A program made the translations under genes and the position numbers. A stretch of DNA of 64,000 bases. It comes from Methylococcaceae bacterium. Its GTDB lineage: Bacteria > Pseudomonadota > Gammaproteobacteria > Methylococcales > Methylococcaceae. Shown piece after piece: positions 1 to 16,616 of this stretch. The DNA is taken from positions 726-64,725 of the forward strand of contig DATIXD010000089.1 in the NCBI GenBank assembly GCA_035518875.1, in the 5' to 3' direction. Position 1 is the first letter of the stretch; each line of letters begins with the position of its first letter. Below the pieces are notes generated by a model. The model saw only the letters and a program-made list of their open reading frames with translations. It ran no database searches and had not been told where the DNA came from.

Positions 1-60
1 AGCCGCCCAGCATCAAGCTTGGCGGCGGTACATTCAGCGTCCTCAAATCGGTTAGGATTG

Positions 61-456
61 TTAGCGATTCTTCAACAGATCGCGGATTTCCATTAGCAAA
101 ACTTCCTGCGCGGGTGGTGGCGGGGGAGGCGCTGCCGCTTCTTTTCTCTTCAGGGCATTCATCACCTTTACGAGCATGAAAATCGCGAAGGCAACAATTA
201 GGAAATCCACCACAGTCTGTACAAAATTACCGTAGTTCAACGTGACCGCCGGAACACCTGCGGCCGCTTCCTTGAGGGTGAATTTCAGATCAGTGAAGTT
301 CACACCGCCGAGAACCAACCCGATGGGTGGCATGATGACGTCCGCCACCACTGAAGACACGATCTTGCCGAATGCGCCGCCGATGATGATACCGACCGCG
401 AGGTCGACCACATTGCCCTTCATTGCAAAGTCTTTGAATTCCTGCATCATGCCCAT
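61..456 (-). CDS. mscL: large-conductance mechanosensitive channel MscL
   Basis: ORF 61..495 trimmed to the ATG at 456. The product starts [35 protein letters not shown] and follows the E. coli MscL TM1 pattern. AAGGGGA sits 5 nt upstream. The C-terminus has the LLxEIRDLL helix. Confidence 0.92.
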
Positions 457-575
457 GGCGTTCCCCTTTCTTAGTTTTTTAGGAGCACGAATCATAGCTT
501 ACCGCTTAATTGGCAGGCAACAGAATCGGGGCGGCGGAGCGGCCTCGCGGACTATGCCTCTTCCGACCGATGGGG

Positions 576-594
576 GATAATGCATATTGTCATC
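576..594. promoter_or_regulatory. putative Fur box (weaker) between divergent mscL and the 657..1487 gene
   Basis: GATAATGCATATTGTCATC matches the 19-bp Fur consensus GATAATGATAATCATTATC at 13 of 19 positions. It lies 62 nt upstream of the ATG at 657. Confidence 0.3.
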
Positions 595-656
595 GGATGA
601 TCGAATCCTTATCCGCTGACCAATCGTCAACCTGTTCGGCTTAAAAAATTTTCACC

Positions 657-1487
657 ATGAAAAACCGTATTATTTCATCCCTCGCCATCAGCGCCAGCCT
701 CCTACTCGTTCCGGCGGCAAAAGCCGACAGCGTCCTAGAATTTCTCGTCAAGGAAACCCGCGATCCAGCCGGCAAGACCCAGCCCGTTCTGGTCAAGGAC
801 GGCCAGATCATGGTCAAGGGCGCGGGCGGCGATGAGAATCTCGATTTCCTGTACAGCCGCGCTCAGGAGAGGCTGGTCATCATCGACCATCACAAGCGCA
901 CCTTCATGCCCGTGGACGAACAGCAGGTCAACCGGATCGCTCAACAGACGGAAGACGTTCAGCCCTTGTTGAAGGGACTTGGGGAACAAATCGGCAAACT
1001 GTCTCCCAAACAGCGCGATAAATGGGAACAGATGCTGGGGGGCAACATATCGCTGGATAAGATCGCTAAGGCGGCAGAGCCACAAAAACCCGGCAGCTTG
1101 GTAAAAACGGGGATGGGGAAAAACGTGGCCGGTATCGCCTGCCAGCAGATGAATCTGATTCAGGGTACGGCGCCCATGGCGGAAGTTTGTCTGGCCGACC
1201 CCGCCAGTATGAACATGTCCGGCGATGATTACGCCACCATCCGCTCACTGTTCAGTTTTTCGGAGCGGCTCGCCACTAAGACCCAGGGACTGGCCGGCCA
1301 GTTCGGCGTTAAGATCCCCAACATCGCCATCCGCGAGGTGGCGGGCATTCCCATCGAGCTGCGGGACTTGTCCGGCGAGGACTTGGGCAGTATGACTTTA
1401 AGCCGTATCCTGAGTACGGCGGTATCGCCCGAACGGATGCAAATTCCCAACGGTTATAGGGCGGAACAACTGACGCTCTGGAAATAA
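657..1487 (+). CDS. secreted protein of unknown function (cleavable signal peptide)
   Basis: The 276-aa ORF has an N-terminal signal peptide, MKNRIISSLAISASLLLVPAAKA|DS. The sequence is soluble-looking and I recognise no catalytic motif. It is convergent with the 1495..2040 gene. Confidence 0.6.
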   Translation: MKNRIISSLAISASLLLVPAAKADSVLEFLVKETRDPAGKTQPVLVKDGQIMVKGAGGDENLDFLYSRAQERLVIIDHHKRTFMPVDEQQVNRIAQQTEDVQPLLKGLGEQIGKLSPKQRDKWEQMLGGNISLDKIAKAAEPQKPGSLVKTGMGKNVAGIACQQMNLIQGTAPMAEVCLADPASMNMSGDDYATIRSLFSFSERLATKTQGLAGQFGVKIPNIAIREVAGIPIELRDLSGEDLGSMTLSRILSTAVSPERMQIPNGYRAEQLTLWK

Positions 1488-1494
1488 CGGGCGA

Positions 1495-2040
1495 TCAGCC
1501 GCGACTGCCTTCGCCGGCAGATGAGGGTACAGTGGCGTCCGCCTGGACGCGCTCCCGTTGCTCGTGGCGCTGGACGATCAGTGAAGCACCCACCAGAATC
1601 AGCAAGGCTGCCAGGCTGAATTCCAGGGTCAGAAACATCCCGATCTTGAACCAGGCAAATGCGGGGTGGACGAAGCGCACCAGCCAGCCGGCCGCTTCAT
1701 CCGCCACCGCGGATCCGAACGTCAACCCGGTCAGCCACACCTTGAAATTCATCGCCAGCGGCGTGAACAGCAGCAAGTGAGTTAGGGTCACCGCCAGCAT
1801 GCCCATCGCGAATAAATGGAAATGCGTCACCTCCAAAAGGCTCTGATAGCTCTTGGGGTGGGTGAAGCGTTCCTCCGAGCCCAGGTAATAGTCGACGACG
1901 GACTGGGGATCGAGCCCCATCTTGTGGAAATACATCATGCCGTTGCTGATCCAGAGTAAGGCGACGTAGGCGAGAAACATCAGAACGATGGTGTTGAGCA
2001 GAGTTTGCCGCCTTTGCTCTCCGGTCACGAAAAATCTCAT
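1495..2040 (-). CDS. integral membrane protein (about 4 TM helices with conserved-looking histidines), function unknown
   Basis: The 181-aa ORF has hydrophobic segments containing EVTHFHLFAMG, TLTHLLLF and RFVHPAF. Its ATG overlaps the stop of the upstream FMN-binding gene (ATGA at 2037..2040). Confidence 0.6.
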   Translation of the reverse strand: MRFFVTGEQRRQTLLNTIVLMFLAYVALLWISNGMMYFHKMGLDPQSVVDYYLGSEERFTHPKSYQSLLEVTHFHLFAMGMLAVTLTHLLLFTPLAMNFKVWLTGLTFGSAVADEAAGWLVRFVHPAFAWFKIGMFLTLEFSLAALLILVGASLIVQRHEQRERVQADATVPSSAGEGSRG

Positions 2041-2594
2041 CGGTTTATCTCCTCTTTGACAGCCAGACGATAAATGGCGAGCACCTTGCGGGCGCCGTCC
2101 ACGGCGGCGCGTGAGCTCAAGGTCGCCCCGCTGATGGCGTCCACACCCTGGTTAAGGCGTAAGTCTTCCAGGGGACGCCGGTATAATTTTTCAAACCATC
2201 TGGCGGGCGGTTGATATTCAGGCGGCTCGTGGAACGCGAGCATCTCGATGCGGCTCAGTTGCCCGTCCGGCGTCAACACGATCATCAAGGTTTCCGGCTG
2301 GGTGCGGACGTTATGCGACTCGATCGCTGCATAGCCCAATATCTCATCGCCCCGCTTGCCGACGTGAAAGGTGAACAGCTTCGACTCCAGTTTGACCTGG
2401 GCGACCTTTTCGACTTCCGCCGCCTGCTCGTCGGTGAGAAAAACCGGCAGGGATTCCACAGTGGCGCCCTGCCCGAACGCTAACTCAAAGGCTTCTTCCT
2501 TGCTGTAATAAACCGTAGCGAAGGTGCTATGCCAAACGGCCAACAAGCTCAGGAATAGGATTTTCCGGAATTTGATCTCGAACATAACGAACAT
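2037..2594 (-). CDS. exported FMN-binding domain protein (ApbE-type covalent flavinylation motif)
   Basis: The N-terminus has a signal or anchor sequence, FRKILFLSLLAVWHSTFA. The C-terminal GVDAISGATLSS fits the Dxx(S/T)GA(T/S) flavinylation motif of NqrC/RnfG-type FMN_bind domains. The start is ambiguous: TTG 2600, ATG 2594 or ATG 2585. Confidence 0.7.
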   Translation of the reverse strand: MFVMFEIKFRKILFLSLLAVWHSTFATVYYSKEEAFELAFGQGATVESLPVFLTDEQAAEVEKVAQVKLESKLFTFHVGKRGDEILGYAAIESHNVRTQPETLMIVLTPDGQLSRIEMLAFHEPPEYQPPARWFEKLYRRPLEDLRLNQGVDAISGATLSSRAAVDGARKVLAIYRLAVKEEINR

Positions 2595-2596
2595 TT

Positions 2597-2633
2597 CCAA
2601 ACAAACACGGCGAGGCCCAGCTTGGGCCCCGCC
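2597..2633 (-). terminator. intercistronic GC-rich hairpin plus T-rich tract between the porin and FMN-binding genes (partial terminator or mRNA stabiliser)
   Basis: The minus strand reads GGCGGGGCCCA-AGC-TGGGCCTCGCC. This forms an 11-bp stem with one G:U pair. It is followed by GTGTTTGTTTGG. Confidence 0.4.
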
Positions 2634-2664
2634 AAAACGATGACTTTCTGTTCTTTGAACACCG

Positions 2665-4155
2665 CTAGTAGATGAACCCCACCCCTAAGTTGAACTCGTC
2701 CGGCGGTTGACCGGCGGCAGAGTGGATATTACGGTAGTCCGCCTTGATCGCGATGTTCGGAATCGGCTTGTAGGTGAGGCCCGCCTGATAGATCCACTGG
2801 TCGTAGAAGCCCCGCGGCTGCAGGCTGGTGTCGAAGCCCTCAGGCACCGAGGCCAGGGTGTTGTAGTGTTCGTAGCGGACGAACGGCGCCAGGTATTGCG
2901 AACTGTCCTTCCAAAGCAAGGGCATCACGTCGTAAGCCGCTTCGGTGTACCAGCCGTAGTTCGAAGATCCTATGGTTTCGCCCTTGGCGGCACTTAGGAC
3001 GTCGGCGTTGCCGATATGGCCGTACGCCCCGAGTGCACGGAACTCCAGCCCCCGGTAGCGCCACTGGACATGCCCCTCGTAAAGCTGGGTGAAGGCAGCG
3101 ATCTTCTTGCCGAGGAAAAGCTGGTTCTGCCCGGCATCGCCCAGATAGGCGGATGCTCCGACCAGGAGGCCGGGCGCCGCGGACGGCACATAATCCACCC
3201 GTCCCGTGAATGCAAAATCCTCGGCGAGCGCTAGACTGCCCTCCTGTCTTCCTTCGGCAATCCCATCGCTCGCGAAACCCTCGGCATTCAGGCCGTTCAC
3301 TGCATACATCCGGTATTGCAAGCCCGGCAGGATTTCGCCGAACAAGCCGCCCCCTAATTCGCTCCAAGTCGTCGGAATAATGATCTGTTCCACGGCCGGA
3401 CGGTGGTTGCCGTGGAAGGTGACCGGTTCGTGGATTTCGTTGATCAAACCCATCGGCATCAGCATCAAGCCCGTACGGATGTTGGCTCTCTTGTCAAGAA
3501 AGAAATCCAGAGTGGAAAATTCCACCGATACTTCCCCTTTTTCTTCGTCGCCTTCTCCGCTGGAGGCGTGCTCCCATTCGAATTCGTTGTTCAGCACGAT
3601 CCAGTCATTGAACTTATAACCCGCATAGAGCACCCCGCGGACGAGATCGATTCGGTCTTTGGTGTCGCCGCTATAGTTGGTGTAAAACATTTCGCCGTAA
3701 CCGCCGATGGAAAGCCCACGGCTGACGCGGTAAACCTCGGAAGCCGCCGGTCCCAGGCCGTACTGGCTCTTGTATTCGCGCTTCTCGGGAATGAAGAGTT
3801 TCGTTTTCAGCTTCTCCACTTCCGAAGCCAGAATGTCAGTCTTACGTTCCACTTCGGTCTTGGCCGTCTTGGCTTTAGCAGTCGGCTGAGGCGTCTCGTT
3901 CGCCTGCGCATTTTGTTGCGGCGTTTTGGCCGCCTCCCGTTGGGCGCTCTGTTTGAGATCTTTCACTTCTTCCTGCAAGGCCTCGCTCTTTGCCGCCTTG
4001 GCCTTCAGAACCTCGATTTCTTTCTGCTGCTGCTGGATGATCTTCCACATCTCTTCCATCGTCGCCGGCATTTTTTCTACCGCCTGGACAACGGGATGAG
4101 CAGCCGTGGCCGTCGCTGCAAAACATAAAGAGGCCCATTTAGCGCCCGATTTCAT
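2665..4155 (-). CDS. outer-membrane porin-like beta-barrel protein with an N-terminal periplasmic coiled coil
   Basis: ORF trimmed to the ATG at 4155, with a GGGAG Shine-Dalgarno 5 nt upstream. Signal peptide MKSGAKWASLCFAATATAAHPVVQA. About 100 aa are rich in E/K/Q/A heptad-like sequence. The rest has alternating beta-strand-like sequence ending GVGFIY, a terminal aromatic typical of OMPs. Confidence 0.65.
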   Translation of the reverse strand: MKSGAKWASLCFAATATAAHPVVQAVEKMPATMEEMWKIIQQQQKEIEVLKAKAAKSEALQEEVKDLKQSAQREAAKTPQQNAQANETPQPTAKAKTAKTEVERKTDILASEVEKLKTKLFIPEKREYKSQYGLGPAASEVYRVSRGLSIGGYGEMFYTNYSGDTKDRIDLVRGVLYAGYKFNDWIVLNNEFEWEHASSGEGDEEKGEVSVEFSTLDFFLDKRANIRTGLMLMPMGLINEIHEPVTFHGNHRPAVEQIIIPTTWSELGGGLFGEILPGLQYRMYAVNGLNAEGFASDGIAEGRQEGSLALAEDFAFTGRVDYVPSAAPGLLVGASAYLGDAGQNQLFLGKKIAAFTQLYEGHVQWRYRGLEFRALGAYGHIGNADVLSAAKGETIGSSNYGWYTEAAYDVMPLLWKDSSQYLAPFVRYEHYNTLASVPEGFDTSLQPRGFYDQWIYQAGLTYKPIPNIAIKADYRNIHSAAGQPPDEFNLGVGFIY

Positions 4156-4192
4156 TTGCACTCCCATTACTCGTTATGAACGCACGGGAGAA

Positions 4193-4221
4193 ATTATACG
4201 CACAACTCTACCTAATGCAAA
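4193..4221 (-). promoter_or_regulatory. sigma70-type promoter of the porin operon
   Basis: On the minus strand the promoter reads TTTGCA (4/6), a 17-nt spacer, then TATAAT (6/6). The -10 lies at 4193..4198, 37 nt upstream of the ATG at 4155. Confidence 0.5.
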
Positions 4222-4229
4222 TCATTATC
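4211..4229. promoter_or_regulatory. Fur box overlapping the -35 of the porin-operon promoter
   Basis: CCTAATGCAAATCATTATC matches the Fur consensus GATAATGATAATCATTATC at 15 of 19 positions, or 14 of 19 read on the other strand. It is embedded in the inverted repeat GCAAAT-N7-ATTTGC. Confidence 0.55.
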
Positions 4230-4285
4230 ATTTGCTAGGTTTGGCGGTCGGGTCTAGTTTGGGGATTTGCGGGAATGGCTGGAAA

Positions 4286-5047
4286 TTAAGGATGCAACAG
4301 GCTTTGGACCCGGCGTAGATCGGCTTCCGTGTCGACACCAGCCTCGGGCGCTCGTTCCACGGGCAAAACGAGGATGCGCTCGCCGTTCCAGAGGATGCGA
4401 AGTTGCTCCAGCGATTCCACGGACTCCAGCGGTGACGCCGGCCAAGCGACATAACGGCGCAGAAAACCGGCGGAGTAGGCGTAAATCCCGATATGGCGGA
4501 GATAGGGAAAACCCTCGGGCAGGCCCTGATCGGTTGCGACGAAGGAATCCCGGTGCCAGGGAATCGGCGCCCGGCTGAAATAAAGCGCGTAGTCGTTCTT
4601 GTCGAGCACGACTTTCACGGCGTTTGGATTGAAAACTTCCGCCCTCTCCCTGATCGGGGCGGCCAGGGTAGCGACCTCAGCCCCGGCCTGCCCGGCCAGC
4701 ACCGCGGCGAGTCGGCGGATCAGCACCGGTTGCATCAAAGGCTCGTCACCTTGGAGGTTGACGATGATCTGCGAATCCGCCCAACCCAGGACTTCCGCGA
4801 CTTCGGCGATCCTTTCCGTGCCGCTGTTGTGCTCCGGTCGGGTCATCACCGCCCTCACGCCGATAAAGGCAACAGCGTCGCGGATGCGTTCGTCGTCGGT
4901 GGCGACCACCACCTCCCCCGCCCCGGCTTCCAAAGCCCTCTCGCAGACATGCGCGATCATCGGCTTGCCGGCAATCGGCAGCAGCGGCTTGCCCGGCAGA
5001 CGGCTCGCCCCGTAACGGGCCGGGATGACGATCTTAAAGGACTGCAT
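4286..5047 (-). CDS. kdsB: 3-deoxy-manno-octulosonate cytidylyltransferase (CMP-KDO synthetase)
   Basis: [34 protein letters not shown] is the hallmark KdsB N-terminus. The start was trimmed to the ATG at 5047. Confidence 0.92.
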
Positions 5048-5264
5048 CGTCGCCGACCAGTCCTGCGGGGTGTTTTTTAGACAGCGCGTCATATTCCTCC
5101 AGACTGAGCCTGCGCGCCTCGGCCTCCAGCATCACCGGGATTTCGTCGCGGATCGGATAAGCCAACCGATCGGCCCGGCAAATCAGTTCCTGTTCCGCCT
5201 TTTTGTAAAGGAGATCGCCTTTGCACAGGGGACATACCAAAATATCAAGCAGCTTTTTGTCCAT
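5034..5264 (-). CDS. ycaR: Trm112/YcaR-family small zinc-ribbon-like protein
   Basis: [18 protein letters not shown]...[16 protein letters not shown] fits the family. It occupies the conserved position between lpxK and kdsB. Confidence 0.8.
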
Positions 5265-6255
5265 CGCATTTCGCCTTCAACAGATTTAACAGTTTCTCGC
5301 CGAATTCGGGCGGCAGGTGTGCGTCGACCGGCACGTACCAATGCCGCTCGCCCGCGATGCTCCGGCATTTGACCGCGTCTTTCTCGGTCATCAAGACTGG
5401 CGCATCGTCGCCGAAGCCGATATCCTCACGGCGGTAGGGATGGTGATCCGGGAACGCCGTCTCCTCGAATTCCAGATCCAGATCCCGAAGGTGGGCGAAA
5501 AAACGCTCCGGGTTGCCGATACCGGCGATGGCCCGCAGCTTCGCGCCGGCGAAATCGGCCAGCGGCTTTTTGAGAGTTTGATCCAAAAGGTTCACCGCAT
5601 GATCGCCCGCCAGGGTCATGCCGAACTCACCCGACTGTGGCCTTCCCTGACACACCACCAGATCCACCTCGCCCAAGCGTTCGAGCGGTTCCCGCAGCGG
5701 ACCTGCGGGCAGACACCGGCCATTACCGAAACGCCGCTCGCCGTCGATCACGGCGATTTCGACATCCCGGGCCAAGGCATAATGTTGCAGGCCGTCATCC
5801 GAGATCACAATATCGCAATCCGTCCGTTCCAAAAGGCTACGCCCGGCGACGGCACGCTCGGGGAAAACCATAACCGGACGACCGGTTCGGCGGGCGATCA
5901 GCAGGGGTTCGTCGCCGACTATGCGCGGATCGCTCTCCGATTCGACCGCCACCGGCCCCTGTAGCGTACTCCCTCCATACCCCCGACTGATAACGCCGGG
6001 CCGGTAACCGGCTTTCCGCAAAAACTCGACGAGCCAAACCACCAGGGGGGTTTTGCCCGTACCGCCCACGCTGAGATTGCCCACCACGATGACGGGGACC
6101 GTAAGGCGATCGGGCTGCTTGAACCCGAACCGATAAGCGGCCCGCCGAACCTTGACCGCTTGCAGAAACAGCGTCGAGAGCGGCCTCAGCAGAATGTTGG
6201 ACGCACTGCCTTCATACCATTGGTGTTGCAGCCAGACGGCCAGGGCCAGTTTCAT
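5245..6255 (-). CDS. lpxK: tetraacyldisaccharide 4'-kinase
   Basis: P-loop [14 protein letters not shown], with LpxK-like length and context. The start is either the ATG at 6255 or the TTG at 6279. Confidence 0.9.
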
Positions 6256-6275
6256 GCCCGTAGCGTGCCGCGCAC

Positions 6276-6698
6276 TCAAGGCTGCTGTTCCGGCGAAGAC
6301 TTGGCGGCGAAGGTGATATGCACAAAACCCAACTGACTCGCCGCGTCCAGGGCGCTCATTACGGCCTGGTGCGGGGTTTTCTGATCGGCGGCGATAATCA
6401 GCAACGGATCCTTGTTCTCGCCTGCCGCCTGCTGCAAGGCCTGTTTCAGCGTATCCACCCGGGTGTTGATCACCTGATGCTGATCGACCACATAACGTCC
6501 TTCCGCATCGATCACGACCTCCAGTCCCTTCTCTTCCGCCTGCTGCTGGGAACTGGCCTCGGGCAGAGAGACTTTCAACGCGGCTTCGCGGCTGAAAGTG
6601 GTGGTCAGCACCAGAAAAATCAGCAGCACGATCAACACGTCGATCATGGGAATGAGGTTCAGGTCGGGCTTGTTCTCCCGTTGCGGTCGGAAATTCAT
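6276..6698 (-). CDS. exbD: ExbD/TolR-family biopolymer transport protein
   Basis: DLNLIPMIDVLIVLLIFLVL is a single TM helix followed by a periplasmic domain. It is paired with an ExbB-like gene. Confidence 0.85.
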   Translation of the reverse strand: MNFRPQRENKPDLNLIPMIDVLIVLLIFLVLTTTFSREAALKVSLPEASSQQQAEEKGLEVVIDAEGRYVVDQHQVINTRVDTLKQALQQAAGENKDPLLIIAADQKTPHQAVMSALDAASQLGFVHITFAAKSSPEQQP

Positions 6699-6710
6699 GG
6701 CGGAGCTCTC

Positions 6711-7325
6711 TTATTCTTCGCGTTCGCCGTGCATCATCTCGATCAGGCGCAGCGCCTCTTCCTCCATGCGCACGGCCAACTCGTCCACCCGCCCCTGGAA
6801 ATAGCGGTGGAACATCAGGCTGGGGATCGCCACCGCCAGCCCGGATGCCGTGGCGATGAGGATTTCCGAAATGCCGCCGGCCAAGTGCGCGGGGTTGCTC
6901 AGCCCGGAAGCCATGGAGAAGGTGGAAAAGACCTTGATCATGCCCAACACGCTGCCGAGCAGGCCGAGATAGGGCGAGATCGATGCGATCGTACCGAGGG
7001 TATTCAAATACTTGCCGAGTTCATGCACCACCTGGCGGCCCGCCTGCTCGAGACTTTCCTTCATCACATCCCGCCCGTGTTTGTAATTCACGAGTCCCGC
7101 CGCGAGAATCGCCCCCAATGGCGAACTCACGCGCAACTGCCGGATATGCACGGCGTCCAGCTGGTTCTTGCGCTGTAATGCCCAGATCTGCGGCACCAGT
7201 TGGCGCGGCAGGATATTGCTGGTCCTCAGCGCCCAAAGGCGTTCGCCGATGATGGCCATTGCGACGATGGAACAGGCGATGATCGGCCACATGACCCAAC
7301 CGCCCGCCTTGATGACTTCAAGCAC
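6711..7325 (-). CDS. exbB: MotA/TolQ/ExbB-family proton channel
   Basis: Three TM segments with LGLLGSVLGMI and the typical C-terminal TM pair. GTG start with GGGGGA upstream. Confidence 0.85.
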   Translation of the reverse strand: MLEVIKAGGWVMWPIIACSIVAMAIIGERLWALRTSNILPRQLVPQIWALQRKNQLDAVHIRQLRVSSPLGAILAAGLVNYKHGRDVMKESLEQAGRQVVHELGKYLNTLGTIASISPYLGLLGSVLGMIKVFSTFSMASGLSNPAHLAGGISEILIATASGLAVAIPSLMFHRYFQGRVDELAVRMEEEALRLIEMMHGEREE

Positions 7326-7367
7326 GATTCATTCCCCCGAAAACCTAGCGATCTATTTCATTTTAAC

Positions 7368-8573
7368 TCAAGGCCGGCGCACGGAGACAGTTAGAATGCG
7401 AGCCCCCGTCCTCCGCTCCCCCGGTTGTTTATCCACCCAGCCCCAAACGATCAGCAACGCGAGCAAGCTGACCCCCGCCGCCGCGCTATAGATCCACACC
7501 GGACCTTGCGAATCCCACAAGGCCCCGCTGTAGTAACTCCCCAGCATGCCGCCGAGTCCGTAGCTGAGGCTGCTGTACAAGGCCTGTCCCTTGCCGTGAT
7601 GGGGCCCGGCAAAATATCGATGCACCAGATGGATCGCCGCCACATGAGAAGCGCCGAAAGTCGCGGCATGGAGAACCTGGGCGAACGCAACCAGGACCAG
7701 CTCTTGCACGAACCAGGCGATGATCAACCAGCGCAGGACGCCCAAGCCGATACTGACCAGCAGAATCCCCCTCAGACTGGAGCGCTGCAACAACCGATGC
7801 AGAAACACGAACAACACGATCTCGGCGAGCACGCCCAAGGCCCAGAGCTGACCGGTCGAACTGCTGTCGAAACCATTTGCCTTCAAGTAAATGGAAAAGA
7901 AGACATAGTAAGGCCCGTGCGCGATCTGGATCAGCATGAAGACCACCAAGAACGCGACCACCCGGGGCTGGCTGAGAATTTTCAGCAGGGACCCGTTGCC
8001 GTTCCCAACGACTCCGATGGAGCGCTCCGGAACCAGAAGGCTCGCCAAGCCCATACCGATGAACAGGATTAAGATCAGGATCGGCAGGCAATCGATCACG
8101 ACGAACGTATCCAGCGCCTTGCCCACGGCCAGCACGGCGACGATGAAGCCGATGGAGCCCCACAGGCGGACGCGGCTGTAACGGTGCGCATCCTGGCCCA
8201 GATGGACCAGCGTCACCGCCTCGAACAGCGGCAGGGGCGCGTTCCAGAAAAAGCCGAAGGCAAACGTAATCAGGGCCAGCCAACGGAAACCGGACAGCCA
8301 GAACACCATGCCGAACCCGACAACGGTCAGGCAGGAGGCCATCCGGATCAACGGCATGCCGCGTCCGCTGCGGTCTGCCAGCCAACCCCACAGATTGGGC
8401 GAGATGAGCTTGGTGCCCGCTAACAGGGCCATTAGCTGGCCGATCTGGGCGGGAGTATACCCTTCGGCCTGGAGATAAAGCGCCCAGTAAGGCAAGAACG
8501 CGCCCAAGGCAGAAAAATAAAAGAAATAAAACCCGGACAGCCGCCAATAAGGAAGCTTCCTCGCAACGGGCAT
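7368..8573 (-). CDS. MFS transporter (MFS_1_like / HcaT-type)
   Basis: 401 aa with a 12-TM hydrophobic pattern. WGWLADRSGRG is an MFS loop 2-3-like motif. Confidence 0.75.
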   Translation of the reverse strand: MPVARKLPYWRLSGFYFFYFSALGAFLPYWALYLQAEGYTPAQIGQLMALLAGTKLISPNLWGWLADRSGRGMPLIRMASCLTVVGFGMVFWLSGFRWLALITFAFGFFWNAPLPLFEAVTLVHLGQDAHRYSRVRLWGSIGFIVAVLAVGKALDTFVVIDCLPILILILFIGMGLASLLVPERSIGVVGNGNGSLLKILSQPRVVAFLVVFMLIQIAHGPYYVFFSIYLKANGFDSSSTGQLWALGVLAEIVLFVFLHRLLQRSSLRGILLVSIGLGVLRWLIIAWFVQELVLVAFAQVLHAATFGASHVAAIHLVHRYFAGPHHGKGQALYSSLSYGLGGMLGSYYSGALWDSQGPVWIYSAAAGVSLLALLIVWGWVDKQPGERRTGARILTVSVRRP

Positions 8574-8601
8574 GGCTAACGTGCGAACAAGGCGAGCGGC
8601 A

Positions 8602-9702
8602 TCACGAAGGGCCCGCCGGAACCGGCTTCAACTCCGTTGTCACATCCTGATTCTGGGCGCGGTGACGCAGATAATGATCCATCAGCACGATCGCCATCAT
8701 CGCCTCGGCGATAGGCGTGGCGCGAATGCCGACGCAGGGATCGTGCCGGCCAGTGGTGATGACTTCCACCGGCTCGCCGCGCACGTTCACGCTCCGGCCC
8801 GGCAGACGCAGACTGGAAGTCGGTTTGAGGGCGATACTGGCGACGATGTCCTGTCCCGAGGAAATGCCACCCAGCACGCCGCCGGCGTGATTGCTGAGGA
8901 AACCTTCCGGACTGATTTCGTCACGGAATTGCGTGCCCCTGGCCTCGATGCAGGCGAAGCCATCGCCGATCTCCACGCCCTTCACCGCATTGATGCTCAT
9001 CAGGGCATAGGCCAGCTCAGCATCCAGCCGGTCGAAGATCGGCTCGCCTAGACCCGGCGGAACGCCGGTCGCCACCACGTTGATTCGCGCCCCGATCGAC
9101 TCGCCTTCCTTCCGCAACGCGTCCATATAAGCCTCCATCTCGGGGACCTTGTCGGGATCCGGGCAGAAGAACGGATTATTGCCGACTTCGTCCCAGACAA
9201 GACGGTGGATTTTAATCGGCCCAAGTTGAGAAAGGTAGCCGCGAATCTCTAAACCTAAGCGCTCTTTCAAATATTTCTTGGCGATGCCCCCCGCCGCGAC
9301 CCGCATCGCCGTCTCCCGCGCAGAGGAGCGTCCGCCGCCCCGGTAATCGCGAAAGCCGTATTTCATGTGATAGGTGTAATCGGCATGGCCGGGACGGAAA
9401 CGCTCGGCGATATTGGAATAATCCTTTGAACGCTGGTCGGTGTTCTCGATCAGCAAGCCGATGGGCGTACCCGTAGTCTTGCCCTCGAACACGCCGGACT
9501 GGATCTTCACCTCGTCCGCTTCTCGCCGCTGGGTAGTGTGCCGCGATGTGCCGGGCTTGCGTCGATCCAGATCTTCCTGGAGATCCGCCTCGCTCAGTTC
9601 AAGCCCCGGCGGACAGCCGTCCACGATGCAGCCGATCGCCGGCCCGTGGCTTTCGCCGAAGGACGTTACCGTGAACAGTTTGCCTAGGGTGTTTCCGGAC
9701 AT
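8602..9702 (-). CDS. aroC: chorismate synthase
   Basis: [33 protein letters not shown] and the downstream conserved AroC blocks are present. Confidence 0.96.

Positions 9703-15515: not shown

Positions 15516-16616
<1,101 letters not shown>

Follow-up and report, generated by a model that had tools for sequence, protein, structure and literature searches.

The window analyzed here is a 64,000-nucleotide stretch of contig DATIXD010000089.1 from a Methylococcaceae bacterium. Near its left end, between positions 4237 and 1495 of the minus strand, lies a three-gene operon that a sequence-only reading had interpreted as a candidate for an uncharacterized iron-responsive redox module of the cell envelope. 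All sequence features listed in that reading were confirmed, including three co-oriented open reading frames that encode, in order of transcription, a porin-like protein, a putatively exported protein with an FMN_bind domain for flavin mononucleotide (FMN), and a protein with four transmembrane helices (4-TM protein) (Table 1). The porin gene probably starts at the ATG at 4155, which has GGGAG five bases before it, and for the FMN_bind gene the 182-residue form is the one chosen by gene callers. The FMN_bind stop codon and the 4-TM start codon overlap in ATGA at 2040–2037, and a GAGGAG Shine-Dalgarno sequence lies 8 nt upstream of the 4-TM start; the coupling suggests that the two proteins are co-translated.

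The promoter of the operon is covered by a 15/19 match to the 19-bp E. coli Fur consensus at 4211–4229, as had been claimed. No other site in the 64 kb reaches 15/19, and two more 14/19 matches overlap this one, one of them at 4217–4235. In composition-preserving shuffles, 0.033 matches of at least 15/19 are expected, and 3% of the shuffles contain one or more. Among 61 non-redundant Methylococcales loci, 54 carry the operator motif (T/C)AAAT(A/G)A(G/T)AAT(C/G)ATTTGCAT at a distance of 45–82 nt upstream of the estimated porin start, as against 9.5% of background segments that contain its core, and a TATAAT-, TATACT- or TACAAT-like −10 hexamer follows the operator at fixed spacing. A position weight matrix derived from the orthologous sites gives 29.8 bits at 4215–4237; nothing else in the window exceeds 12 bits, except the same palindrome on the opposite strand (13.2 bits). 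The operator over the −35 element is thus phylogenetically conserved, with a core of the Fur GATAAT-hexamer type, and it is probably bound by a regulator of the Fur family.

When the matrix was applied to roughly 1 Mb of loci, further sites were found in a single locus, from a Crenothrix metagenome-assembled genome, where two strong matches occur (L064:2022-2041 and 3023-3042). One of these precedes a gene for a 351-residue exported protein without family match, directly upstream of the porin gene. Two weaker candidates in the window were discarded: a 14/19 Fur-like box at 576–594, upstream of a 276-residue gene, has no conserved counterpart in M. capsulatus or Methylomagnum and was not accepted as belonging to the system, and consensus matches of 13–14/19 at 16121–16145 (14/19 at 16121–16139) fall inside the pheS coding sequence and were taken as chance.

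The porin and FMN_bind genes are separated by a hairpin of 12 pairs, 9 of them G-C (−29.8 kcal/mol, z = −3.1). Hairpins of −18 kcal/mol or lower follow the porin stop codon in 35% of the orthologous loci, compared with 15% of the background, and the element may set a high ratio of porin to its partners. An Rfam scan of positions 1–5000 of the window returned no riboswitch or other RNA.

Table 1. Features of the operon, in window coordinates (aa, amino acids)
Feature	Position	Strand	Remarks
Fur-type operator (putative)	4215..4237	-	TAGCAAATGATAATGATTTGCAT; overlaps -35; includes 15/19 and 14/19 consensus matches
Sigma-70-like promoter	4193..4221	-	-35 TTTGCA 4221-4216, 17-nt spacer, -10 TATAAT 4198-4193; 10/12 positions match
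Porin gene	2665..4155	-	496 aa; alternative start 4167 gives 500 aa
Coiled-coil region of the porin	3799..4059	-	aa 37-123; two helices and, between them, a linker rich in Pro, Ala, Gln and Lys
Hairpin, candidate partial terminator/attenuator	2608..2634	-	G+C-rich, then TGTTTGTTTG; between porin and FMN_bind genes
FMN_bind gene	2037..2585	-	182 aa from ATG 2585; 187 aa from TTG 2600
Flavinylation motif DAISGAT	2121..2141	-	aa 154-160 (187-aa numbering)
4-TM gene	1495..2040	-	181 aa; family PF27139 (Aq_1264_TM)
Transmembrane helix 2 (TM2) of the 4-TM protein	1771..1848	-	aa 65-90; family signature E70, H73, H75, H88

Conservation of the cassette

One genome per species was scanned with a closer homologue set, which gave 570 relatives, and we examined the loci of the best 80 of these 570, nearly all of them labeled Methylococcales. 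The order porin, FMN_bind, 4-TM is found in nearly all Methylococcales loci with enough flanking sequence. In a set of eight distant loci (L083, L084, L085, L086, L087, L095/96, L097 and L098), an FMN_bind gene is adjacent in seven, and apbE is adjacent or fused in seven. The same cassette as in the window recurs, with porin identities of 28–52%, in L083 (porin, 52% identity; FMN_bind; 4-TM fused to ApbE), L084 (porin, 37%; FMN_bind; tandem 4-TM; ApbE), L087 (FTR1; porin, 28%; 4-TM; FUR; FMN_bind; ApbE), L095/96 (coiled-coil barrel protein; FMN_bind; 4-TM; ApbE) and L098 (porin, 38%; FMN_bind; 4-TM; ApbE). The other distant loci hold ApbE, FMN_bind, a 4-TM gene fused to DtxR-C and FeoA domains, and then a FUR-family gene (L085); FMN_bind, two 4-TM paralogues and ApbE (L086); and two 4-TM genes with a FeoB-associated gene (L097). 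The links to iron in the distant modules are fur in L085 and L087, FTR1 in L087, the DtxR-C/FeoA domains fused to the 4-TM protein in L085, and the FeoB-associated gene in L097. Fusion of apbE to the 4-TM gene is seen in P0244, P0246, P0247 and P0301; the association with apbE is seen in loci outside Methylococcales, and within Methylococcales apbE is not part of the module locus. The sequence-only reading had proposed a check of the co-occurrence of the three genes across genomes, and on the evidence of both the Methylococcales loci and the distant lineages the trio is a conserved functional unit.

Some loci depart from the common arrangement. In Methylomagnum ishizawai (L088), an FMN_bind and 4-TM pair occurs without an adjacent porin gene, with only a weak Fur-like site upstream, so the porin is not obligatorily linked. 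Two genes of L087, encoding 148 and 161 residues, match no known family. About 10 of the 61 Methylococcales loci (L003, L004, L007, L012, L038, L064, L065, L071, L080 and L081) have a gene for a MauG/MbnH-like di-heme cytochrome c inserted after the porin gene and before the FMN_bind gene; it scores 146 bits against the MbnH model, below the cut-off of that model.

The occurrence of a CCP_MauG gene in or beside the module in this subset of loci, and the fact that PF01475 (FUR) also covers PerR-type regulators, would fit a function in peroxide or oxidative stress, in which a PerR-like Fur paralogue acts at the operator while the flavoprotein and its membrane partner feed a periplasmic di-heme peroxidase. 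We regard such a function as highly improbable, given that the di-heme gene is missing from most loci and from this window, that it is closest to the MbnH/MauG type and not to classical BCCP, and that the FTR1, FeoA and FeoB-associated neighbors indicate iron.

Upstream of the operon in the window, positions 4286–9702 (minus strand) hold a housekeeping cluster of kdsB, a trm112-like gene, lpxK, exbD, exbB, an MFS transporter gene and aroC, in which exbBD has no associated operator match. Convergent to the operon, at 657–1487 on the plus strand, lies the gene for the 276-residue exported protein, to which no function is assigned. Its M. capsulatus homologue, a conserved neighbor of the operon there, is 40% identical and has weak similarity to DUF4412; the 276-residue gene probably corresponds to a 273-residue gene at the equivalent position in Methylomagnum, and it is not kept in most other Methylococcales. 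Just past the left edge of the window, in the same organism, the 276-residue gene is followed by genes for MscL, a CDF transporter and an HbpS-like protein (L093:11343-13874). The CDF transporter combines Cation_efflux and ZT_dimer domains, and a CDF gene adjoins the module in M. capsulatus and Methylomagnum too. When the three operon proteins and their convergent neighbor were scanned with Pfam and NCBIfam, components of TonB-receptor, FTR1/P19, Efe or Feo systems did not appear, in line with what the sequence-only reading had stated.

The porin and the MopI locus of M. capsulatus

The first gene product has the predicted architecture of a signal peptide, a coiled coil, and a beta-barrel with the terminal aromatic residue in GVGFIY. 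In an AlphaFold2 model, helices formed by residues 37–77 and 105–123 precede the barrel, and the stalk residues W41, I44, Q47, Q48, I51, L54, K109, T110, L113, E116 and K119 are invariant among 25 orthologues. Foldseek searches with the model retrieved OmpC, OmpU, OmpM1, OprO and OprP with E-values of 1e-11 to 1e-8 and a probability of 1.0, with OmpM1 (8bys) among the top structural matches. At the sequence level, Pfam gave sub-threshold scores only (OMP_b-brl, 22.8 bits with a cut-off of 28.7; TonB barrel, 21.2 with a cut-off of 27) and no SLH or Porin_O_P match, NCBIfam gave nothing above threshold, and a search against the PDB found no relative. Porin partners in the distant loci L083 and L095 likewise start with a coiled coil, and that of L095 shares the combined coiled-coil and barrel architecture. 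The porin is not entirely anonymous, since its M. capsulatus orthologue, at 63% identity, is the named outer-membrane protein MopI (MCA1905). OmpM of Veillonella and SlpA of Deinococcus are similarly built from a beta-barrel porin with an N-terminal coiled-coil stalk; in contrast to these, the operon porin has no SLH domain, and its stalk is co-encoded with a redox pair instead of serving as a peptidoglycan tether.

The orthologous locus in M. capsulatus Bath spans MCA1902–MCA1906 (L001), with identities of 63% (porin), 62% (FMN_bind) and 71% (4-TM) by tblastn (67–69% in alignments). Its identity follows from two segments of MCA1906 printed in Fig. S1 of PMC4831470, which are contained in the L001 di-heme gene, from the FMN-binding InterPro signature of MCA1903, and from the consecutive GenBank entries AAU91819 to AAU91823. 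Compared with the operon in the window, this locus adds a 232-residue lipoprotein, MCA1904, and the divergent MauG-family di-heme gene MCA1906 (L001:5676-6848). MCA1904 was considered as a possible MbnP, but it does not match that family or any other. A literature search on MCA1902–1906 found one microarray paper only, and one for MopI by name found nothing; a paper on a Methylobacter porin-cytochrome system was set aside, as it describes an unrelated MtrAB-type cluster.

In that microarray study, copper-free cells expressing soluble methane monooxygenase (sMMO) were compared with copper-replete cells using particulate methane monooxygenase (pMMO) (PMC4831470 Table S1). Expression in the copper-free cells was higher by 22.8-fold for mopI (MCA1905), 6.6-fold for MCA1904, 3.7-fold for MCA1903 and 2.8-fold for MCA1902, and by 14.7-fold for the divergent MCA1906; mopE (+16.4), MCA2590 (+12.0) and a hemin-degradation-type gene (6.8-fold) were elevated in the same table (PMC4831470). 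The module is therefore starvation-inducible in experiment, and the drop in fold-change from MCA1905 to MCA1902 fits partial termination at the post-porin hairpin.

These data also bring copper into consideration as the metal. In such a scheme, the module would act in copper acquisition or the copper switch, either reducing Cu(II) or servicing a surface di-heme MauG/MbnH-like enzyme under copper scarcity, in parallel to MopE and MCA2590. The induction of mopI and MCA1906 is akin to that of mopE and MCA2590, MCA1906 has been reported in the M. capsulatus surface fraction, a di-heme gene of this type is inserted in the operon in the minority of Methylococcales loci described above, and the conserved His and Glu residues of the 4-TM protein could bind copper as well as iron. 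We nonetheless judge a copper function to be unlikely: (i) the conserved operator belongs to the Fur type, with its GATAAT hexamers; (ii) the cassette is found far outside Methylococcales, beside fur, FTR1, DtxR-C/FeoA and FeoB-associated genes; (iii) the di-heme gene is absent from the operon in the window and from most loci; and (iv) feoAB and bfd rise too, which a higher iron demand in sMMO growth could explain.

The probable flavoprotein and its proposed membrane partner

The sequence-only reading had expected the second protein to contain an FMN_bind domain, and Pfam PF04205 indeed matches residues 104–174 with 32.6 bits (cut-off 22, E 1.3e-7). The motif DAISGAT fits the flavinylation pattern Dxx(s/t)gA(T/S), with the predicted FMN-bearing Thr at position 160 in the 187-residue numbering or 155 in the 182-residue numbering. 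About 118 of 120 homologues keep D[GA][IV][SAT]GAT, and [ST]G[AS]T is present in six of the seven distant FMN_bind partners, the seventh (L083) having MGST. Residues 49–178 align to the RnfG structures 9eri_G and 7zc6_G, and SGAT falls on AITGST and AITGAT, close to the C-terminal ends of these two RnfG chains, which we take to be their FMN attachment sites, as known for RnfG and NqrC; NCBIfam matches to RnfG are weak. By inspection, a Sec signal peptide with its n-, h- and c-regions can be recognized in the N-terminal sequence MFEIKFRKILFLSLLAVWHSTFA/TV. Taken together, the protein is of the standard ApbE-substrate type and is probably flavinylated covalently. M. capsulatus encodes nqrA–E, and PMC4348036 describes the NqrB and NqrC subunits of the Na+-translocating NADH:quinone oxidoreductase (Na+-NQR) as carrying covalent FMN; the presence of nqrA–E would imply an ApbE in that organism.

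The 4-TM protein is assigned to PF27139 (Aq_1264_TM) through the precomputed Pfam annotation of the 99%-identical P0001 and of all 120 listed homologues, and the same family is assigned to the 4-TM genes in the loci; Pfam and NCBIfam scans of the protein itself gave no family above threshold. Literature searches for the family name and for aq_1264 found nothing. An exhaustive HMMER search collected 458 clusters at 50% identity (E up to 1e-3). The AlphaFold2 model consists of four long helices and has a mean predicted local distance difference test score (pLDDT) of 94.4. Among 45 relatives, E70 is conserved in 41, H73 in 39, H75 in 43 and H88 in 42, and Y52 and G54 in periplasmic loop 1 also belong to the family signature. 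The conserved histidines thus all lie on one helix, TM2. Of the histidines that had been pointed out within hydrophobic segments, those of THFH (H73 and H75) and THLL (H88) are conserved; that of FVHP is not, being present in 16 of the 45.

E70, H73 and H75 would lie near the periplasmic face of the membrane and H88 near the cytoplasmic face. The topology, with a cytoplasmic C-terminus and periplasmic loops 1 and 3, follows from the fusion arrangements after TM4: in the ApbE fusions TM4 is followed by a linker of strongly basic character and an additional, fifth hydrophobic stretch, whereas DtxR-C/FeoA and PilZ domains are attached directly. In P0273 (L085:1477-2730, on a single contig), the 4-TM protein is fused at its cytoplasmic end to a DtxR metal-binding domain without helix-turn-helix and to FeoA, and in P0264 to a PilZ domain. 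The domain content of these two fusions suggests gating by cytoplasmic metal or by cyclic di-GMP, respectively.

Tandem proteins in which two 4-TM units are joined (n = 17; P0257, P0278, P0287 and 14 others) divide the signature between their halves. The N-terminal half has H73 in 17/17, E70 in 14/17 and D/E71 in 12/17, and never H75 or H88; the C-terminal half has H75 and H88 in 17/17 and H73 in 2/17. Two-gene forms split the histidines likewise (L086:501-1539). From this division it follows that the functional unit is a dimer that needs only three histidines, which by its residue pattern implies an asymmetric three-His center per dimer; homodimers of single-gene forms could still supply six. 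The residue pattern leaves several options for this center: (i) a single bis-His heme may span the two protomers close to the periplasmic face, with H73 and H75′ as its ligands and H88 in another role; (ii) by analogy, a non-heme iron center may be present, comparable to the intramembrane center through which NqrD/E supplies NqrC and RnfA/E supplies RnfG; or (iii) the TM2 cluster may form a path for metal translocation.

The last of these options leads to a permease, in which the Aq_1264_TM dimer would carry a metal such as Fe(II) through the inner membrane along the Glu/His path of TM2, while the flavoprotein reduces Fe(III) with electrons from elsewhere. The operon holds no other permease, and E70, H73, H75 and H88 are typical metal ligands. 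C-terminal cytoplasmic regulatory fusions such as those of P0273 and P0264 are common in gated transporters, L097 has a FeoB-associated neighbor, and the tandem and two-gene forms recall the evolution of small dimeric transporters. Still, the permease has a low probability in our assessment, because the L087 cluster already contains an FTR1 permease, the conserved polar residues all sit on a single helix, a protein coupled so tightly to FMN_bind and ApbE would more typically be a redox partner, and the flavoprotein would still need an electron source.

The proximity of apbE, which is adjacent in most distant loci and fused to Aq_1264_TM in some, could also be read as a sign of flavin traffic, with the 4-TM protein moving flavin adenine dinucleotide across the inner membrane to ApbE in the manner of the energy-coupling-factor-type FmnA/EetB of Listeria. 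Flavin-provisioning transporters have been noted in apbE clusters (PMC10979944). A transporter of this kind is very unlikely here: the Methylococcales loci lack apbE, and their 4-TM gene is always coupled to one FMN_bind gene behind a starvation operator; the 4-TM protein resembles no known flavin transporter; and Na+-NQR, which is encoded in M. capsulatus, would need flavin regardless of starvation.

Proposed function and relation to known systems

On balance, we lean towards a metal-starvation operon under a Fur-type operator that encodes a three-layer, flavin-based metal reductase of the cell envelope, the metal being most likely iron. In the outer layer, a MopI-type porin, trimeric by analogy and with a periplasmic coiled-coil stalk, would admit or present the substrate. 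The RnfG-like protein, predicted to be exported, would receive a covalent flavin on the Thr of DAISGAT from an ApbE whose gene lies elsewhere in the genome. The Aq_1264_TM dimer would serve as the inner-membrane partner of the flavoprotein, where the TM2 cluster of E70, H73, H75 and H88 would hold a redox center or a quinol site from which the flavin receives electrons. These would pass on from the flavin to Fe(III), and perhaps to Cu(II), either in the periplasm or at the porin, and the reduced metal would enter through a permease encoded elsewhere, such as FeoB. The scheme draws on the conserved gene unit, its link to apbE, the operator over the −35, the iron-related neighbors in distant loci, and the joint induction of MCA1902–MCA1905 with feoAB, bfd and the hemin-degradation-type gene. 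What has been shown comprises the conservation of the genes, the motifs, the operator footprint and the linkage to ApbE, FUR and FTR1; flavinylation, the way in which electrons flow, the substrate and the nature of the 4-TM cofactor belong to its inferred part. The interpretation offered by the sequence-only reading, taken as a whole, is partly supported.

Several observations weigh against an iron-directed reductase of this type. The stimulus in the sole expression dataset is the omission of copper, so that an iron response is deduced from the operator and from gene neighbors in other phyla, and classical Fur markers rose only about 2-fold in that dataset (feoA and feoB 2.1, bfd 2.3), as against 23-fold for mopI (PMC4831470). 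Both an electron donor and a permease are absent from the genes of the operon, and tblastn with FTR1, ApbE and Fur queries did not find apbE, fur or FTR1 in the 64-kb window. Confidence in the porin model is only moderate (pLDDT of 62 for the whole protein, more than 80 for the C-terminal barrel). For the membrane partner, a scan of 45 family members that allowed E-values of up to 10 matched neither DUF4405, PepSY_TM and FRD nor any cytochrome b family (Pfam PF03929, PF16357, PF01794 and PF14358), Foldseek of the 4-TM model against the PDB gave no hit with E below 1 (the top ones being MAPEG four-helix bundles with a TM-score below 0.5), and a profile search against PDB sequences returned nothing meaningful. 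With only three conserved histidines per functional unit, a classical four-His di-heme arrangement as in FoxB, MsrQ and DUF4405 is unlikely for the tandem forms. The bis-His heme b that had been suggested for this protein accordingly found no positive evidence, as judged by the lack of a family match and of a fold match and by the position of the histidines on one helix.

Among the closest known systems are those based on flavinylation, which have been grouped into five classes (PepSY-like/DUF2271, MsrQ-like, NapH-like, DsbD and NQR/RNF-like; Meheust et al. 2021, PMC8238504). The module also pairs a predicted exported ApbE substrate with a small membrane partner and, outside Methylococcales, has apbE nearby; with the PepSY-like and MsrQ-like systems it further shares Fur-type control and neighboring iron-transport genes. 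In its proposed mode of working it is like the Fur-repressed PepSY-like, DUF2271 and MsrQ-like flavinylated systems, for which a role as assimilatory iron reductases has been put forward (PMC8238504). The module differs from the five classes in that its PF27139 partner fits none of them, a dedicated coiled-coil porin belongs to its core, and it has no NAD-binding domain, VIT1 or TonB receptor.

A second comparison is with the cytochromes b of DUF4405/FezC, FoxB (PepSY_TM) and MsrQ (Huang et al. 2024, PMC10979944), which are also small and colocalized with apbE and in which intramembrane histidines are the most conserved residues. The reasoning by which DUF4405 and FezC were identified applies to the module as well (PMC10979944). 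FezC forms its heme sites by homodimerizing (PMC10979944); Aq_1264_TM likewise looks dimeric, as judged by the tandem and two-gene forms, and the H75-x12-H88 spacing recalls di-heme motifs. Unlike these proteins, however, it has four helices instead of six and three histidines per pseudo-dimer instead of four, and it matches them neither in sequence nor in fold.

In NqrD/E and RnfA/E, an intramembrane Fe-S center feeds a periplasmic subunit that carries covalent FMN. The pairs NqrD/NqrE–NqrC and RnfA/RnfE–RnfG resemble the module, by analogy only, in combining a membrane dimer or pseudo-dimer, with its ligands on one helix per protomer, and an RnfG/NqrC-like flavoprotein. The ligands of the module are His and Glu and not Cys, each protomer has four transmembrane helices and not six, no cytoplasmic NADH or ferredoxin module is present, and there is no homology.

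Finally, in the iron-regulated FTR1-type systems of the envelope (FtrABCD, P19/FTR1 with an FMN-binding protein, and EfeUOB), uptake is coupled to redox chemistry in the periplasm, and L087 combines FTR1 with the cassette; the operon in the window, by comparison, lacks FTR1, P19, a cupredoxin and a peroxidase. The earlier conclusion that the module matches none of the TonB-dependent receptor, FTR1/P19, EfeUOB and Feo uptake architectures therefore stands. Based on sequence comparison, it appears to be a real, uncharacterized variant of flavinylation-based extracytosolic electron transfer, outside the five classes of 2021 and the DUF4405 class.

We also put forward a more specific and more doubtful proposal, namely that Aq_1264_TM dimers form a hitherto unknown, minimal membrane entry point for electrons. 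An asymmetric center on the periplasmic side (H73 of one protomer with H75′/H88 of the other, and E70), holding a single heme b or non-heme iron, would pass electrons from quinol to the flavinylated RnfG-like protein and, together with the stalked porin, make up a trans-envelope metal reductase that would be switched on by scarcity of iron or copper in methanotrophs and many other bacteria.

Flavinylated extracytosolic electron transfer is widespread and its membrane entry points are partly catalogued; the module would add a class with a new membrane partner and with a dedicated outer-membrane porin, which is unusual for a system of this kind. It also offers a testable function for PF27139 and for the orphan MopI, whose locus is among the more strongly copper-responsive ones of M. 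capsulatus. The growth of methanotrophs and their choice between pMMO and sMMO hinge on the supply of copper and iron, and an envelope metal reductase would bear on the physiology of methane oxidation. If Aq_1264_TM dimers do act as a minimal redox entry point, the methanotroph copper switch would be linked to flavin-based metal reduction.

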